A stretch of DNA of 37,213 nucleotides from Candidatus Limimorpha equi (lineage in GTDB: Bacteria; Bacteroidota; Bacteroidia; Bacteroidales; F082). The notes beneath the pieces were generated by a model. It was not told where the DNA came from, made no database searches, and saw nothing but the letters and a program-made list of their open reading frames with translations. Below are positions 13,355 to 34,249 of this stretch, one piece after another (the first letter of the stretch is position 1; each line of letters opens with the position of its first letter). The position numbers were made by a program, and so were the translations under genes. The stretch spans positions 1 to 37,213 of the forward strand of contig JAGHSL010000041.1 in NCBI GenBank assembly GCA_018065885.1, in the 5' to 3' direction.

Positions 13355-14281
13355 TTACCGAGATGGCTTTGGGAACGCATCCAGCATTTCATTCCAACGC
13401 TTGACATTGCCGTTCACATCGCCCGAACTCACTCCATAGAGCGACTTAGCCATGTTCTGGTATAAGGCCATCTCACTGTCCTTATCGGCTATCTTGTTGA
13501 TTACAGAACGATACTGGCTATCGGTAGGAATGTCAGGAAGGGCAACCTTTCCTTTTTCCATCAAGGCATCCACGAAAGCCACATGGCCGCTGTGGAGCTT
13601 TTTCTGAACGGCTGCTTTCCGCGTGCTTTCGTAGAGCGTAGTGTTGCTGACTGGAGCGCTTGCCGTGGGCACATTGGCCAAGAGATTCTCCACCGTCTTG
13701 TAGTTCCATCTGTCGTCGATGGATGACGGAAGCTGCTTGCTTTGCCTATTCACATTCGAATTGTAATTTACAATTACACGGTATTCCTTGCAGATCCCGT
13801 CGATTTCCATCAGGTCGCTGTTGCTCTTTTCCCCTTTGAGGAAGTCCGCTGTCATGGCCTCGATGCTTTTAAAGTTATCCCAGTTCCAGCTTTTCTTTGC
13901 AAATTCGCTTCTTGCCATGGCGATGAAACGCACCAGGCAGCGGTTGCGGATGACCACGTTCACGCTCGTCATACATTCTGGTTCGACGTTCTGATTAGCG
14001 AAAAACTTACGCAGCTCTTCGGGAAGCGCCTGCAGCTTCTTGAAATCGCCGTCGCCGACGGCATTGACCTGCGCCTCAATGAGCTTTCCGGCCGAAGCCA
14101 CCGTCCCTTCGCATACTTCAGGAATTATGATTTCTTCTTGTTGCTGTTGTTCTGGTTCGTTTGTGGCAATCTTGTAGATTCCGAAACCCAAGGCGGCTGC
14201 TATGGCCACCACGATAATGATTTTAATTGTTTTCATTGGTTTGTGTTGTATTATGATTTTTATTTTATTGCAATTTTCCAT
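13355..14281 (-). CDS. Single-pass (N-terminal TM) protein of unknown function, last gene of the cluster
   Basis: 308 aa. ATG at 14281 overlaps the upstream gene by 17 nt. The alternative ATG at 14236 gives MKTIKIIIVVAIAAALGFGIYKIA (signal-anchor). I recognised no known motif. Confidence 0.6.
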   Translation of the reverse strand: MENCNKIKIIIQHKPMKTIKIIIVVAIAAALGFGIYKIATNEPEQQQQEEIIIPEVCEGTVASAGKLIEAQVNAVGDGDFKKLQALPEELRKFFANQNVEPECMTSVNVVIRNRCLVRFIAMARSEFAKKSWNWDNFKSIEAMTADFLKGEKSNSDLMEIDGICKEYRVIVNYNSNVNRQSKQLPSSIDDRWNYKTVENLLANVPTASAPVSNTTLYESTRKAAVQKKLHSGHVAFVDALMEKGKVALPDIPTDSQYRSVINKIADKDSEMALYQNMAKSLYGVSSGDVNGNVKRWNEMLDAFPKPSR

Positions 14282-17200
14282 CTAAAGCATTTACTAAGCA
14301 AGTCAAAATATCCCAATCATTTTTTTTATTAGCTTCTGAGGAAACATAACCATTGGCTCTTTGAAATGATTGTTCATATTGATCTTTGCCCATTTTTCTT
14401 GCTCTATCTTTGATATTTGAAATTTGCTTACTATACCTGTCGACGCTATTATTCAAAGAAAATTCCTCAAAATACTGATCTATAGTTAACTCTGCAGCAT
14501 TGTGATAATTAAGGCTGTTGAATATTTCATTTATTGTGTTTAGTGTTTTCTTCCCACCGCCATCACCATCTGATTTTTCAACAGATTCCTGGGCACCCAG
14601 GGAAGTACTTTCACCTTGAGTATCTTGGAGCCTTTTTTTCAGATCTTCCACCCAACCAGTCACTTTCTTAACCATCTTAGAATCAGGATATTCACTCTGA
14701 TAATTATTGAGGAAACCTTTACATTCTTCTAATGTCTTTGTATTTTCATAAAATTTTTTAAAAGCTTTCACCGCTCCAACATCTTCTGAATACCTTCCGC
14801 CATACTTGCCATCACCATACTTTTCAATAAAACCACGGGCAGAATCTGGCCCATCTACCATATTAAGCTCTTCCCATTCTTCCCTTTCCTCTTCGGCATT
14901 TGCTAATGATTTTTTTTCTTTTTCCCTTTCATTAATCCATTTGTTCACCTGCTTTCTATGTGCTTCAGACATCGGGGCTGTCAAATCACCAATTTTATCC
15001 TTAATCTCATCATAAGACTTCATATCTACATCATTCCATTTCTTTTCCAAGAAGCTAAGTCGGGCAAAATTCACGCTATCGCGATGCCTGAAGTCACATT
15101 GTTTTTGGTACAAGCTTTCAAAAGCGAGATACAATGAATCCTGTTGGGCTTCTTTTTGCTTTTCATTTTTTTCCAATCCTTCAATTATCTTCAGACATTC
15201 TGAATGACATTGTTCTGCACCTGCCATAAGTGTGAAATCGCCACAATAACATTCAAAGCCTTTCACCTGATCATTGAAATGTTCCATTCTTTCCTTTTGT
15301 TCTGCAAACACGTTGTTGTCGTCCTTCAGAGCCAAGGCCAAAGCCAATGCACCGCCAACCACAAGCAGAAGCGACACGACCAACAGGAACATGTATTTTG
15401 TCCGGAGCTTCCTGACAACCTTGTATGGCTGAGGTTTTTCGGTTTCTTGCCGCCAAACAACCTCTTCCTCATCTCCAAGTTCCAGCCTATACGAATAACG
15501 GTCTTTCTCAACTTTCGCAAACTTTGGTTCAACCGTAGGCATGTCTTGACACTCAATCACAAGCCTATGATTTTTTTTGTCATAGGAGATACCTTTATCT
15601 TTGATGATTTCATCAGGACCATTTCCAAAGACAGAAAATTTCTTCGATTTCTTATCCAGCAGCAGCACCCACTTCTTTATTGGCTTTTCTACCGGTTCTT
15701 CTTTTTTCCTAACATCTTTATCTTTGTAGGTGTTCTCTTTTCTCTTTGGCCGTCCCGGGTCTGAGGCCGTTAGCTGAACGGAAACGCCGGAGTTTGCCGA
15801 GTTGGACCCGTCGTGCGGGGAATTTCCTCCGGCTTTGACCGGAGGAAGCGAAACGGCTTCTTTCTTCTTAAAATACAGTTTCACATTCCCATTTGAATCA
15901 TCGCATTTGTCAAATTCCAGACCTTGATCAGCGTAACACCTTTTCAGTTCATCGATTTTTGCATCCAATTCGTTTTTCCGGACGGACATTTCAGAAATTT
16001 TCTGAAAATCAAGTATAATCTTTACCGTGATTAGCGGATACTTGGCCTTTATTGTCACGGTTCTGTTTGCGGCATCCTCCTGTGGCGGAGCCACTTCAAG
16101 TCCTGCGACATTCAAACTGCGTTTCAGCTTTTCGATTTCCGTGTATTTTCCGTTTTGCTTCACTGGGAATGTTCCTCCGTTTACGGGCGAAATCACGTTG
16201 ATGGTCCAAGTCGGGTTGAACGTAAGCTGAACATCAACTTTACCAACAGTGCCGTCGGCAATGGCGACAGACAGTTCATTATCATCGTAGCCGTTGCAGC
16301 TCACCTTGACGGTCCAGACCTCGTCACATTCCTCTCTCTCAAACTTGTAAAGTCCGTTTTCAGCAGTTCTTTTTTCCCAAGACGAGTCGTAGAACTTGCC
16401 TTTTTTCCATTCAACGGTAGTCTCTCCACTTAGAAACAGATTTCCAGTTGCTTTGTCAATGATTCGAAGCGAAACCGATGCGCTTTTGGGGACGAGAATG
16501 GGCAGCTCCACATTGATGGTTTCGCCATCCGAGCTTTGTGTGCCGGAAGGGATATAGACCTCGGCAGGCCTATAGCCACTTCTTTCGAGTCTGCCGCACC
16601 GGAAGTCTCCTGCACTTGTTTCCAGTTCTTTCTTTTTGACAGATGATTTCAAGCCATTAGTGAAGTATCCGTTCGGGTTGTTATATTCAATGGCATAATC
16701 GATGTCGTCGATATCCACATCGTTTGTCGTCAGCACTTTGTAGCCTTCTTCGCCATTGTCCGACACCATTTGCGGGTCGAGCAGGCTTTCGGTAAGAAAC
16801 ACCTGTTCGAAGTTGGCAAAGCCAGATTTTAGGAAATGGGGATATTGGAAATAATCGTCCACGCGGTTTTCGGCCCCTTGCATCAAGGCCGTGCGCGATG
16901 CGTCGCCAACTCGAGGGTGCTGTTTCCAATGCTTGCTTTCCACCAGTTTGTTCAGTTCGTCGGATTTGTCTTTCACAAACGACCAATCGACATCCACATT
17001 AGCCATTCCCCCCACGATGTGCATCTTGTATTTCAAGACAATATCGTCCAAAGCCTTCTTGATTTCGGTGCCAGCCAGTTTTTCTCCCTTAGGCAGGAAA
17101 AGGCTGGCCATCATGAAACCGTCGCGGCCAAAACCATCGAAAAGAAGAATCAGCTTATGGAACAGGACACCTGTAGCCAAAGGCTGAAAGCTATAGCCTT

Positions 17201-33159: not shown

Positions 33160-33163
33160 GACT

Positions 33164-34249
33164 TTATTGATCTTTGTGAATCAATTCATATAAATGCTTT
33201 GACCTAACTCCATAATTAAAGTTTTGGCCCTCTCTAACTCCAGCGTAATTGATAGCCACAATCTGCCCTCTACGGTTTAACACAGGACTCCCACTCGACC
33301 CGGGAAGCGTGGCAATGCTATATAGGATTCTGTTTTTTTCTTCCCTGCTAATTGACCCTTCGGTGCATTGTGAATAGATACCCTCACCTGTTTGAGCTAT
33401 GCCAATGCCATAGTTGAAGCCAACCATAAATAGCCTTTCGTTCTTATCGCTACCCAAAATTCTCATCAGATATTCTCCAAACGAATAGTGTTCCAGCATA
33501 TTCTTTTGGGAAACGGTGAAAACATATCGGTCTTTCGGTGTTTCCTTGGTATTCAGTTGGATAATTGCAAGGTCGTATGACGATGTATCCCTCAACGAAC
33601 AAGGATAGAAATCATCGTATGAATTAACAAAAGTGCCATTATAGGCAACTTTTAAATCACTCTCGTAGCTAATTTCAGCTCCTTCAGTATCGGCTCGTCC
33701 CAATTCCTTAATTAAGTCATTTCTCTCTTCAATCTCATTTTCCAACTCGTCATATCTTTTCTTTAATGCAGCTTTTTCGGTTATGTCAACAGAATTATTG
33801 AACTGATATGCAATCTGTTGTTGCATTTGAGCAGCAGTTTTGTTCTCTTCTTCACTTTGAACAATGACAAGATTCAAGATTTGCTTCGTTAGGCGCTTAA
33901 TGTTTTTATCGCTAACCATCCTGCTTGCCACATGCTTATTGGTAGCTATCATTCCATCATTGGAGACAAAAAAGCCCGTTCCTGTCGAGGTTTTTACACA
34001 GTCTTCCTTCTCCAATGACACATTAGTGATATTGCCATCGCCATCACCTGAAAAATAAAAGGCCATGCCATTTGGCAATGTCAGGACGTAATAATCACGA
34101 TGTAAAATGAGCACCACACCGCTCCGACACTTCTCATCAATTTGGTTTTTAGTGCTATTGCATGCGCATAAAAACAGGCAAACAAAAACGCTGAATAGTA
34201 CAAATCCCTTTTGCAGATTCATATCTTTTTTCATCAAATACTTTCTCAT
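33164..34249 (-). CDS. Lipoprotein trypsin-fold (S1) serine protease with a coiled-coil insert, first gene of the cluster
   Basis: 361 aa with signal FVLFSVFVCLFLCAC. The triad-type blocks are GTGFFVSNDGMIATNKHVA, YDLAIIQL and PGSSGSPVLNRRGQIVAINYAG. The insert is ...AAQMQQQIAYQ...KKRYDELENEIEERNDLIKELG. It is a paralog of 30777..31883. Confidence 0.8.
   Translation of the reverse strand: MRKYLMKKDMNLQKGFVLFSVFVCLFLCACNSTKNQIDEKCRSGVVLILHRDYYVLTLPNGMAFYFSGDGDGNITNVSLEKEDCVKTSTGTGFFVSNDGMIATNKHVASRMVSDKNIKRLTKQILNLVIVQSEEENKTAAQMQQQIAYQFNNSVDITEKAALKKRYDELENEIEERNDLIKELGRADTEGAEISYESDLKVAYNGTFVNSYDDFYPCSLRDTSSYDLAIIQLNTKETPKDRYVFTVSQKNMLEHYSFGEYLMRILGSDKNERLFMVGFNYGIGIAQTGEGIYSQCTEGSISREEKNRILYSIATLPGSSGSPVLNRRGQIVAINYAGVREGQNFNYGVRSKHLYELIHKDQ

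Follow-up and report, generated by a model that had tools for sequence, protein, structure and literature searches.

A complete Srf system of the Bacteroidota type, with clade-specific proteases and a putative sigma/anti-sigma pair, in Candidatus Limimorpha equi

The srfABC genes are described as SsrB-regulated in Salmonella. Recombinant Xenorhabdus SrfABC was reported to be cytotoxic and insecticidal (PMC6950479). In a 2026 preprint SrfA was described as a pseudokinase-like N-terminal domain joined by a membrane helix to a lipocalin in the periplasm, SrfA-SrfB-SrfC was modeled there as a complex with AlphaFold3, and export in vesicles was proposed (bioRxiv 10.64898/2026.09.18.752743). The definition of DO-GTPases comes from predicted conflict systems in which a GAP1 protein is encoded downstream; the paper makes no mention of SrfB or SrfC (Kaur, Burroughs, Iyer and Aravind 2020, PMC7159879). 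The bacterial dynamin-like protein DynA was reported to act in membrane surveillance, phage resistance and delay of phage-induced lysis (PMC8844932). A gene cluster of Candidatus Limimorpha equi (assembly GCA_018065885.1) was compared here with these systems. The window, meaning the whole stretch analyzed, was contig JAGHSL010000041.1, positions 1-37,213 of the forward strand (37,213 nucleotides, nt). Its sequence identifies the locus as a complete Bacteroidota-type Srf system with additions specific to its clade, and this identity is settled. The function favored for it, at somewhat less than even confidence and from predicted folds and topology, is that of a nucleoside triphosphate (NTP)-driven machine for envelope surveillance and membrane remodeling with periplasmic proteases as its output.

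The cluster is an unbroken series of minus-strand open reading frames (ORFs). Thirteen of these (g1-g13, running from 34249 to 13355) had been singled out in an original prediction, made from the letters of the DNA, as an expanded SrfABC-like envelope system with its own proteases and sigma/anti-sigma pair. All thirteen were recovered in place, spaced by 4, -4, 5, 8, 32, 6, 12, 0 or 6, 73, 98, 161 and -17 nt; the g8-g9 gap is 6 nt if g9 starts at the ATG at 21241 and 0 nt from its first possible start, a TTG at 21247. The genes for the SrfB, SrfC and SrfA-like proteins are:

27574..30768, minus strand: g5, SrfB, a predicted large ASKHA-type (actin/Hsp70-like) ATPase of 1064 amino acids (aa), from PF07520 and its phosphate-binding motifs
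24650..27541, minus strand: g6, SrfC, a P-loop GTPase of 963 aa with a predicted dynamin-like fold (PF10139, E=5.3e-89)
23033..24643, minus strand: g7, SrfA-like adaptor whose cytoplasmic SrfA-N-like domain is followed by beta-rich repeats and a C-terminal anchor (segment 512-530)
21248..23020, minus strand: g8, second SrfA-like adaptor, 590 aa, in which an SrfA-N-like domain and repeats precede a membrane segment and a periplasmic C-domain

The proposed Srf-type core was borne out by strong profile matches of the 1064-aa and 963-aa proteins. SrfB matched PF07520 at E=3.4e-166 (555 bits) over residues 2-1057 and model positions 10-991, and srfC lies 32 nt downstream of srfB. The motifs DMGNSRTT and DIGAGTTD were read in the translation of SrfB, and GQSQCGKS and DFPG in that of SrfC. 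The two adaptors had been called tail-anchored paralogs; this description fits g7, which ends in its anchor, and fails for g8, which is bitopic, with a membrane segment at 427-445 followed by a 145-aa Cys-rich extracytoplasmic domain. g8 is 56% identical to g7 over 419 aa, and its C-domain recurs in an SrfA-S8 fusion at another locus (L014, E=4e-17).

Neither g7 nor g8 matched the SrfA_fam model (NCBIfam NF040486) directly at E<=1, and their homology to SrfA is therefore transitive. The g7/g8 family profile matched, at ~1e-9 over residues 11-160, a 406-aa proteobacterial protein encoded upstream of srfB (L009), which in turn scored 1e-25 on positions 4-179 of SrfA_fam. The S8 fusion of L006 matched the N part of the same model (1e-3), and that of L008 (Portibacter) its lipocalin-like C part (4e-22). 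Transitive homology and matching topology make a convincing sequence-based case that g7 and g8 are SrfA homologs, and on that footing the window carries all of SrfABC, arranged as B-C-A-A'. Nothing significant was found in the window for the lipocalin-like SrfA-C domain with a profile built from 30 Bacteroidota loci. At L009 (a 4.59-Mb proteobacterial genome), three tandem SrfA-N paralogs were seen upstream of srfB (2895-6979), each with a membrane segment and with a periplasmic trypsin-like protease, beta-rich domain and SrfA-C-like domain, respectively; they are followed by two proteins without a Pfam match, an ABC ATPase and an FGE-sulfatase gene (FGE, formylglycine-generating enzyme).

The distal genes of the thirteen are:

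19264..20244, minus strand: g10, core protein of 326 aa with four transmembrane segments (4-TM) and a ~180-aa loop predicted to be periplasmic
17504..19165, minus strand: g11, cytoplasmic TRAFAC GTPase of 553 aa, probably of the DO-GTPase kind, with N-terminal BamD/TPR-like repeats
14265..17342, minus strand: g12, head protein of 1025 aa with a TagF/longin-like N-domain (1 to ~200, fold predicted), then a variable middle, one membrane segment (652-670) and a periplasmic C-part that also varies
13355..14281, minus strand: g13 (p13), type-II membrane protein of 308 aa, the seventh core gene (p13 profile E=1.9e-11; segment 21-39)

Hydropathy agreed with the predicted topology, with four segments found in g10, a single one in g12 and an N-terminal one in both g13 and the papain-like protein g9. 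The motifs GVPGSGKT, EISG and TKCD were likewise read in the 553-aa protein.

Relatives were collected by an alignment-based scan of one genome per GTDB species, which placed SrfC relatives on at least 456 stretches, of which 80 loci were kept. No relatives were returned by a genome scan with SrfC alone or a metagenome scan with g4 alone; alignment-based scans found them. All but three of the kept loci were labeled Bacteroidota (the exceptions being two Clostridiales bins and one Dialister bin), and they spanned Bacteroidales, Flavobacteriales, Chitinophagales, Sphingobacteriales, Cytophagales and Saprospiraceae, with Bacteroides, Prevotella/Segatella, Parabacteroides and Alistipes as gut carriers. 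Genes were counted with iterated profiles from the window proteins over 89 loci, many of them incomplete: SrfB was matched in 88, SrfC in 89, g7/g8-like proteins in 83, the 4-TM protein in 75 and the GTPase in 76. The order SrfB-SrfC-SrfA-like-4TM-GTPase-head-p13-p14 was near-invariant (up to 76 of the 89 loci) and persisted down to ~25% SrfC identity; the g10-like gene always came after the SrfA-like gene, and the g12-like gene always followed the GTPase gene. The core is therefore an eight-gene operon, and the GTPase/head pair, which had been put forward as an extra of this locus, is by the same order part of the standard Bacteroidota Srf operon. The proposal that homologs would be syntenic in related genomes held, and a protease and the 4-TM protein, as well as the GTPase/membrane-protein pair, co-occurred with srfB/srfC.

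About 40 close SrfC relatives (51-70% identity) were found, all from metagenome assemblies, on contigs carrying a trypsin-fold protease, in some cases sigma and anti-sigma genes, a second trypsin-fold protease, SrfB, SrfC, two paralogs, a C1 protease, and the 4-TM protein, GTPase and ~1000-aa protein. Distant loci (31-40% SrfC identity, including Portibacter lacus) were without the upstream protease/sigma module and kept SrfB, SrfC, a g7/g8-like N-terminus fused to S8, g10-g13-like proteins and a further ~310-aa protein. The generic Bacteroidota operon, as in Portibacter lacus, Niastella yeongjuensis, Bacteroides muris and a Runella sp. SP2 plasmid, has the same eight-gene core in the same order; compared with it, the window clade has lost the S8 and SrfA-C domains, duplicated SrfA, and gained extra head-domain paralogs, a sigma/anti-sigma pair and three separate proteases, one papain-like and two of them trypsin-fold lipoproteins.

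Set against SrfABC of proteobacteria (Salmonella enterica, Xenorhabdus stockiae, Haemophilus parainfluenzae), the window shares clear SrfB and SrfC families. An SrfA-N-like domain, a bitopic adaptor, a variable periplasmic domain and an FGE-sulfatase-type component occur in both, and both are horizontally mobile. The proteobacterial order is A-B-C, whereas it is B-C-A-A' in the window and SrfB-SrfC-SrfA-like in all Bacteroidota loci examined. The lipocalin-like SrfA-C of proteobacteria is missing from the window, and the accessories differ, being vWA proteins and a Lol-like ABC transporter in proteobacteria, and the 4-TM protein, DO-type GTPase, longin-like head and p13/p14 here. Unlike in proteobacterial SrfABC, proteases are integral to the system in the window.

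An AlphaFold2 model of SrfC was built with 28 homologs (mean predicted local distance difference test score, pLDDT, 87) and compared with the PDB by Foldseek. Members of the dynamin superfamily made up 32 of the 33 best matches, with probabilities up to 1.00 and a GBP-type protein as the sole exception; SynDLP (1.3e-8), BDLP (1.6e-5) and the Campylobacter DLP pair (1.9e-5) were followed by Drp1, mitofusins, Fzo1 and IniA. SrfC is accordingly predicted from its model to have a dynamin-like fold, a link for which no description was found in the searchable literature. By sequence, SrfC matched only PF10139 at E<=0.01 and no dynamin in a profile search against PDB sequences, and no relative of solved structure was found by sequence for SrfB, SrfC or g11. 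Like the bacterial dynamin-like proteins (BDLP, SynDLP, Campylobacter DLP1/2, DynA, IniA), SrfC has a predicted GTPase domain and long helical bundles, would be membrane-associated and shares its operon with a second GTPase. It differs from them in having no dynamin sequence match, an altered G4 motif, an ASKHA ATPase partner and a membrane attachment that is presumably through SrfA and not through an intrinsic paddle.

A secreted tripartite toxin would have SrfA, SrfB and SrfC exported, for example in outer-membrane vesicles, against eukaryotic or competitor cells, with the proteases as co-delivered cargo. The cytotoxic and insecticidal activity reported for Xenorhabdus SrfABC (PMC6950479) and the vesicle export proposed in the preprint speak for this, and lipoprotein proteases would be plausible vesicle cargo. 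SrfB, SrfC and the g11 GTPase, however, have no signal peptide and no membrane segment, and the SrfA-like N-domains lie inside. The operon is also common in free-living non-pathogens (Flavobacterium, Niastella, Runella, Gelidibacter), and a dynamin-like GTPase with a GTPase/longin-like pair resembles cellular machinery. Secretion as a toxin was judged very unlikely.

g11 itself had no Pfam match. Among the 66 members of its family, 14 matched PF19993 (DO-GTPase2) and 12 matched PF19975 (DO-GTPase1), the best at 1.5e-11; across the family the Walker-B Glu (E369) did not vary, nor did the G4 Lys (K452), and at least 90% of members kept the P-loop G-K and the G4 Asp (D454). On these family-level matches, g11 probably belongs with the DO-GTPases of predicted conflict systems. 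Shared with the DO-GTPase/GAP1 systems are a TRAFAC GTPase with a Walker-B glutamate, a partner with a variable C-terminus just downstream and proximity to the membrane. The system here differs in having no detectable GAP1-N/M/C, GASH or FNIII, a TagF/longin-like partner head, and a tie to SrfB/SrfC. Two DO-type GTPase copies were seen in the operons of L048 (16060-19163) and L063 (16793-18262 and 20746-22107), in tandem or apart, which by analogy echoes the "double GTPase" habit of DO-GTPase systems. A stand-alone DUF805 protein was encoded between the 4-TM and GTPase genes at L039, L043, L049-L051, L054, L060, L070, L079 and L082. This insertion typifies one Bacteroidaceae/Prevotellaceae sub-clade, and DUF805, present in 14 loci, thus recurs as a module associated with Srf.

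The head domain of g12 was modeled with AlphaFold2 at pLDDT 93, and was matched by Foldseek to TagF (E=3.7e-4, probability 1.0), with Lst4, FLCN and roadblock-longin proteins at probabilities of 0.6-0.84. Longin domains pair with small GTPases (MglB, FLCN/Lst4). The modeled fold resembles the TagF/longin folds typical of GTPase regulators, and the head gene stands beside a GTPase gene; the head domain differs from TagF and longin proteins in having no sequence similarity to them, no type VI secretion genes nearby, and a fusion to membrane and periplasmic parts. The head family (first ~200 residues of g12) was collected by an exhaustive search of representative proteins, a word-indexed search with the g12 head region having missed even g12, and comprised 120 clusters among 1.84 billion representative proteins. 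The head was always N-terminal, and the C-parts varied (DUF805, Sel1, TPR, FGE-sulfatase). g12 itself had no Pfam match, and 68 representatives of the family matched only 6 Pfam families. Identification of the head protein as GAP1 was rejected: no GAP1 Pfam family was among the matches listed for 62 positional orthologs, which covered the 20 families with the most matching members, or for the 68 representatives. No Pfam match to a GASH or FNIII-repeat component was obtained on any window protein.

Upstream of srfB and between g8 and g10, the locus encodes its clade-specific proteases and regulators:

33164..34249, minus strand: g1, trypsin-fold (S1/S46-like) lipoprotein protease with a helical insert (PF13365 1.7e-16, PF10459 3.1e-9)
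32560..33159, minus strand: g2, divergent sigma-70/ECF-like (extracytoplasmic function) factor, putative (TIGR02937 6.8e-7 and PF07638 6.4e-4, under curated cut-offs)
31889..32563, minus strand: g3, single-pass anti-sigma-like protein (zf-HC2 1.7e-3; membrane segment 80-98)
30777..31883, minus strand: g4, second trypsin-fold lipoprotein protease (PF13365 1.2e-12), a paralog of g1 at 39% identity
20318..21247, minus strand: g9, signal-anchored papain-like (C1) protease (PF00112 1.6e-15)

The three predicted proteases were upheld. Both trypsin-fold proteins matched PF13365, their lipobox was supported by alignment, and the lipobox Cys and the His/Asp/Ser triad were unchanged among six aligned homologs; the papain-fold assignment of g9 was backed by PF00112 and by its N-terminal membrane segment. 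The sigma/anti-sigma pair stood in part: the ORFs, their 4-nt overlap and the single-pass topology were found, and the family matches of both fell under curated cut-offs (g2: TIGR02937 29.1 bits for a cut-off of 42.9, PF07638 20.1 for 21.1, region 4 matches at E ~0.007; g3: zf-HC2 18.9 bits for 22.2, zinc ligands absent), which leaves the assignments plausible. The block trypsin-sigma-anti-sigma-trypsin-srfB was present in the window and in L010, L090, L091, L103 and L104, and the protease/sigma module directly adjoined srfB in 8 of 8 close-clade loci. The sigma factor was missing in the close relatives L001 and L102, and the trypsin-fold lipoproteins, papain-like enzyme and sigma/anti-sigma pair were restricted to one uncultured Bacteroidales clade. 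The pair is therefore an accessory of this clade.

In L001 and L102 the periplasmic C-domain of g3 was found as a stand-alone protein of 125-130 aa, and the domain occurred in 7 loci overall. Its retention between the two proteases suggests, as far as sequence can indicate, that they act on it or partner with it. An ECF-like sigma factor and anti-sigma between two proteases would by analogy suggest DegS/RseA-style regulated proteolysis feeding back on transcription. Elsewhere the protease was of another class: an S8 domain was carried by 76 of 96 SrfA-like ORFs from 79 loci, and no S8 remnant was found in the window proteins. The g9-type C1 protease was seen solely in the close clade, and a g1/g4-type trypsin was also encoded downstream of other Srf operons (L094, L096 and L097), fused into ~850-aa proteins. 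By these profile matches a protease is a constant Srf component, usually an S8 domain fused to SrfA and here a separate papain-like enzyme plus two trypsin-fold lipoproteins. With S8 lost and the other enzymes present instead, protease function would thus have been kept by non-homologous replacement.

The array had been taken to end at a GC-rich double hairpin. Further genes of the system lie beyond it:

13232..13307, minus strand: GC-rich hairpin(s) after g13, an internal structure
12094..12969, minus strand: d1, protein of 291 aa with kinship to p14, the eighth core gene (hhalign probability 96.9%, E=1.9e-10)
11303..12097, minus strand: d2, 264-aa exported protein, counterpart of p14 (p14 profile E=5.6e-8; hhalign 98.1%)
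9434..11209, minus strand: d3, second head-domain protein, head-N followed by DUF805 (PF05656 1.6e-15) and repeats (head-N against g12, E ~1e-8)
7839..9404, minus strand: d4, 521-aa paralog of d5 with a homolog adjoining Srf locus L094 (E=1e-12)
6715..7479, minus strand: d5, 254-aa paralog of d4
5176..6120, minus strand: d6, 314-aa single-pass repeat protein, with ~85-aa repeats common to the C-termini of d3 and g12 orthologs
3382..5103, minus strand: d7, third head-domain protein, with head-N, a membrane segment and a periplasmic FGE-sulfatase/SUMF1 domain (PF03781, E=3e-47)

The hairpin is real, the region 13215-13355 folding strongly (-57.6 kcal/mol, z = -3.5), and no U-tract terminator was called at it. 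It was ruled out as the end of the system by synteny and by the p14-family genes beyond it: homologs of d1, d2 and d3 followed the 308-aa gene in the same order in L102 and L103, separated by 1 to 232 nt. From this synteny and the linked head-domain paralogs, the system therefore extends over ~3382-34249, about 20 genes. The N-terminus of d2 is signal-peptide-like. Across their first 289 residues d3 and d7 show 82% identity, beyond which they diverge fully (DUF805 and repeats against FGE-sulfatase), a cassette-like pattern that suggests recent duplication with a swap of the C-terminal domain; an FGE-sulfatase gene likewise stands beside proteobacterial srf loci (bioRxiv 10.64898/2026.09.18.752743). 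d4 and d5 were seen to carry internal repeats and no Pfam family, with a homolog beside the distant Srf locus L094, and d6 likewise matched no Pfam family.

Two promoter-like motifs were found by consensus match:

34331..34338, minus strand: Bacteroidetes-type -7 promoter-like motif TATTTTTG (TAnnTTTG), 89 nt upstream of the first ATG, a consensus match alone
17370-17377: second TATTTTTG -7-type motif, 35 nt upstream of the g12 start, within the 161-nt gap

The second may be an internal promoter for the distal genes. Together with the distal gaps of 73-161 nt and the hairpin after g13 it would allow sub-operons, which is what is expected if chance had brought together separate units (proteases with sigma/anti-sigma, srfBCA, and GTPase/head); the restriction of the protease/sigma module to one clade also fits such an assembly. 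This account is largely refuted by synteny and barely tenable, given that up to 76 of 89 loci keep the core order, down to ~25% SrfC identity, that the protease/sigma module abuts srfB in all eight close-clade loci and that the same genes are packed at gaps of 1-46 nt in L102.

Just upstream of the cluster, a tandem duplication (34367-35034) was observed with 266-nt copies, 87% identical and spaced by 402 nt. Each copy holds one minus-strand ORF (34399-34629 and 34801-35031) for a 76-aa protein (MKDINIGKDIREELKRQGRSV...), with TAnnTTTG after each. No Pfam match and no homolog among the related loci was found for these proteins, which may be small regulators. Further out, the flanks encode a WG-repeat protein (426-1595), an Asp-Al_Ex permease (1763-2983, plus strand), a DUF1294 protein (3076-3363) and a TPR protein (35204-36937) in divergent orientation with an N-terminal signal-like segment. 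These flanking genes appear unrelated to the Srf system.

Among the related loci, L001 adjoins genes for an integrase, a NusG-like protein and a TraG-type coupling protein, and SrfC relatives were present on 141 plasmids. On the 93-kb Runella sp. SP2 plasmid pSP2_1 (L105), positions 1-7497 were observed to encode BREX type 1 (PglZ, BrxL), a restriction endonuclease and an AAA ATPase, directly upstream of a complete Bacteroidota-type Srf operon; that operon is annotated by NCBI as SrfB, SrfC, S8 peptidase and hypothetical proteins. Two distinct Srf operons (L019 and L066) were seen in one Alloprevotella metagenome-assembled genome (MAG; BRZ_LB__bin49), so a single genome can hold more than one Srf system. 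Across 55 loci no conserved upstream partner of the phylum-wide operon was found; integrases were the most recurrent, at 4 of 103 ORFs.

A dedicated anti-phage defense, working by abortive infection or lysis delay, would use the DO-type GTPase module as sensor and the proteases or SrfC as effectors that kill or protect. It would draw on the kinship of the GTPase with conflict-system DO-GTPases (PMC7159879), on the variable, exchangeable sensor tails and proteases, on the MAG with two systems, on the BREX/restriction genes and integrases in context and on the DynA precedent (PMC8844932). Against it, no core protein matched PADLOC, no GAP1, GASH or FNIII partner was found, the strict eight-gene order across the phylum would be unusual for defense islands, and the neighbors are mostly housekeeping genes; this specialization was considered unlikely. 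A housekeeping envelope role outside conflict, such as vesicle biogenesis or cargo loading, lipoprotein or surface-protein processing, or periplasmic quality control, would accord with the wide syntenic conservation, with the Lol-like ABC transporter and FGE genes of proteobacterial loci, and with periplasmic proteases and a formylglycine-generating-enzyme-type domain, which suggest protein maturation. The varying genomic positions, nearby integrases, plasmid carriage, highly variable peripheral domains and very small head family (120 clusters) speak against it, and it was rated decidedly unlikely.

The favored machine for envelope surveillance and membrane remodeling, possibly in conflict with phages or competitors, is inferred in its mechanism from predicted folds and topology. 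By analogy with the AlphaFold3 model, the cytoplasmic SrfA-N-like domains of the bitopic g7 and g8 would dock SrfB and SrfC on the inner membrane face. The g11 GTPase and the head proteins g12, d3 and d7 would form a switch, accompanied by g10 and the ~300-aa proteins g13, d1 and d2. Variable periplasmic tails would sense envelope change (damage, phage, toxin), the longin-like head would set the nucleotide state of the DO-type GTPase, and the GTPase would license assembly of SrfB/SrfC on SrfA, leading to membrane remodeling or repair, with periplasmic proteases positioned or activated as output.

Several observations weigh against this reading. The only functional reports published on SrfABC describe it as a toxin (PMC6950479). 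The Foldseek TM-scores are low for SrfC (0.15-0.25), as expected for flexible multi-domain proteins, and just ~0.3 for the head domain, so that both fold calls rest on Foldseek probability and consistent match lists. g11 lacks a Pfam match of its own, about one fifth of its family matching the DO-GTPase families, and both sigma and anti-sigma score under curated cut-offs. As to conflict, no phage-borne SrfC was found. A known defense system was rejected for the core proteins: SrfB, SrfC, g7-g13 and d1-d7 had no match in PADLOC-DB 2.0, where only the generic trypsin domains of g1 and g4 were matched (RT-Protease and PDC models). Most upstream neighbors are housekeeping genes unrelated to the system, and the genomic surroundings thus give no strong indication of a conflict role.

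A broader proposal, possible though on balance doubtful, is that the eight-gene operon is an unrecognized bacterial membrane-dynamics machine built from eukaryote-like parts (a dynamin-like SrfC, an actin/Hsp70-like SrfB, the DO-type GTPase as a small-GTPase-type switch and a membrane-anchored longin/TagF-like regulator), which would couple periplasmic sensing to remodeling (repair, vesicle scission, phage sealing) and deploy exchangeable proteases (S8, papain-like, trypsin-like). If this is true, the whole family would be misnamed by the label "SrfABC toxin". SrfABC itself is known; the searchable literature yielded no account of how the Bacteroidota operon is built, of its GTPase/longin-like pair or of the replacement of its protease. 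For over two decades SrfABC has been listed as an SsrB-regulated "virulence factor" or toxin; it is placed here within a larger conserved machine, with mechanistic leads in the predicted dynamin-like fold of SrfC, in the GTPase/longin-like switch and in a periplasmic protease that is obligatory and has been swapped among three catalytic classes. Cultured carriers exist (Bacteroides muris, Flavobacterium spp., Niastella, Runella), so Srf function is directly testable. If the membrane-surveillance reading is true, the system would be a new class of envelope defense or repair system in a dominant gut phylum.

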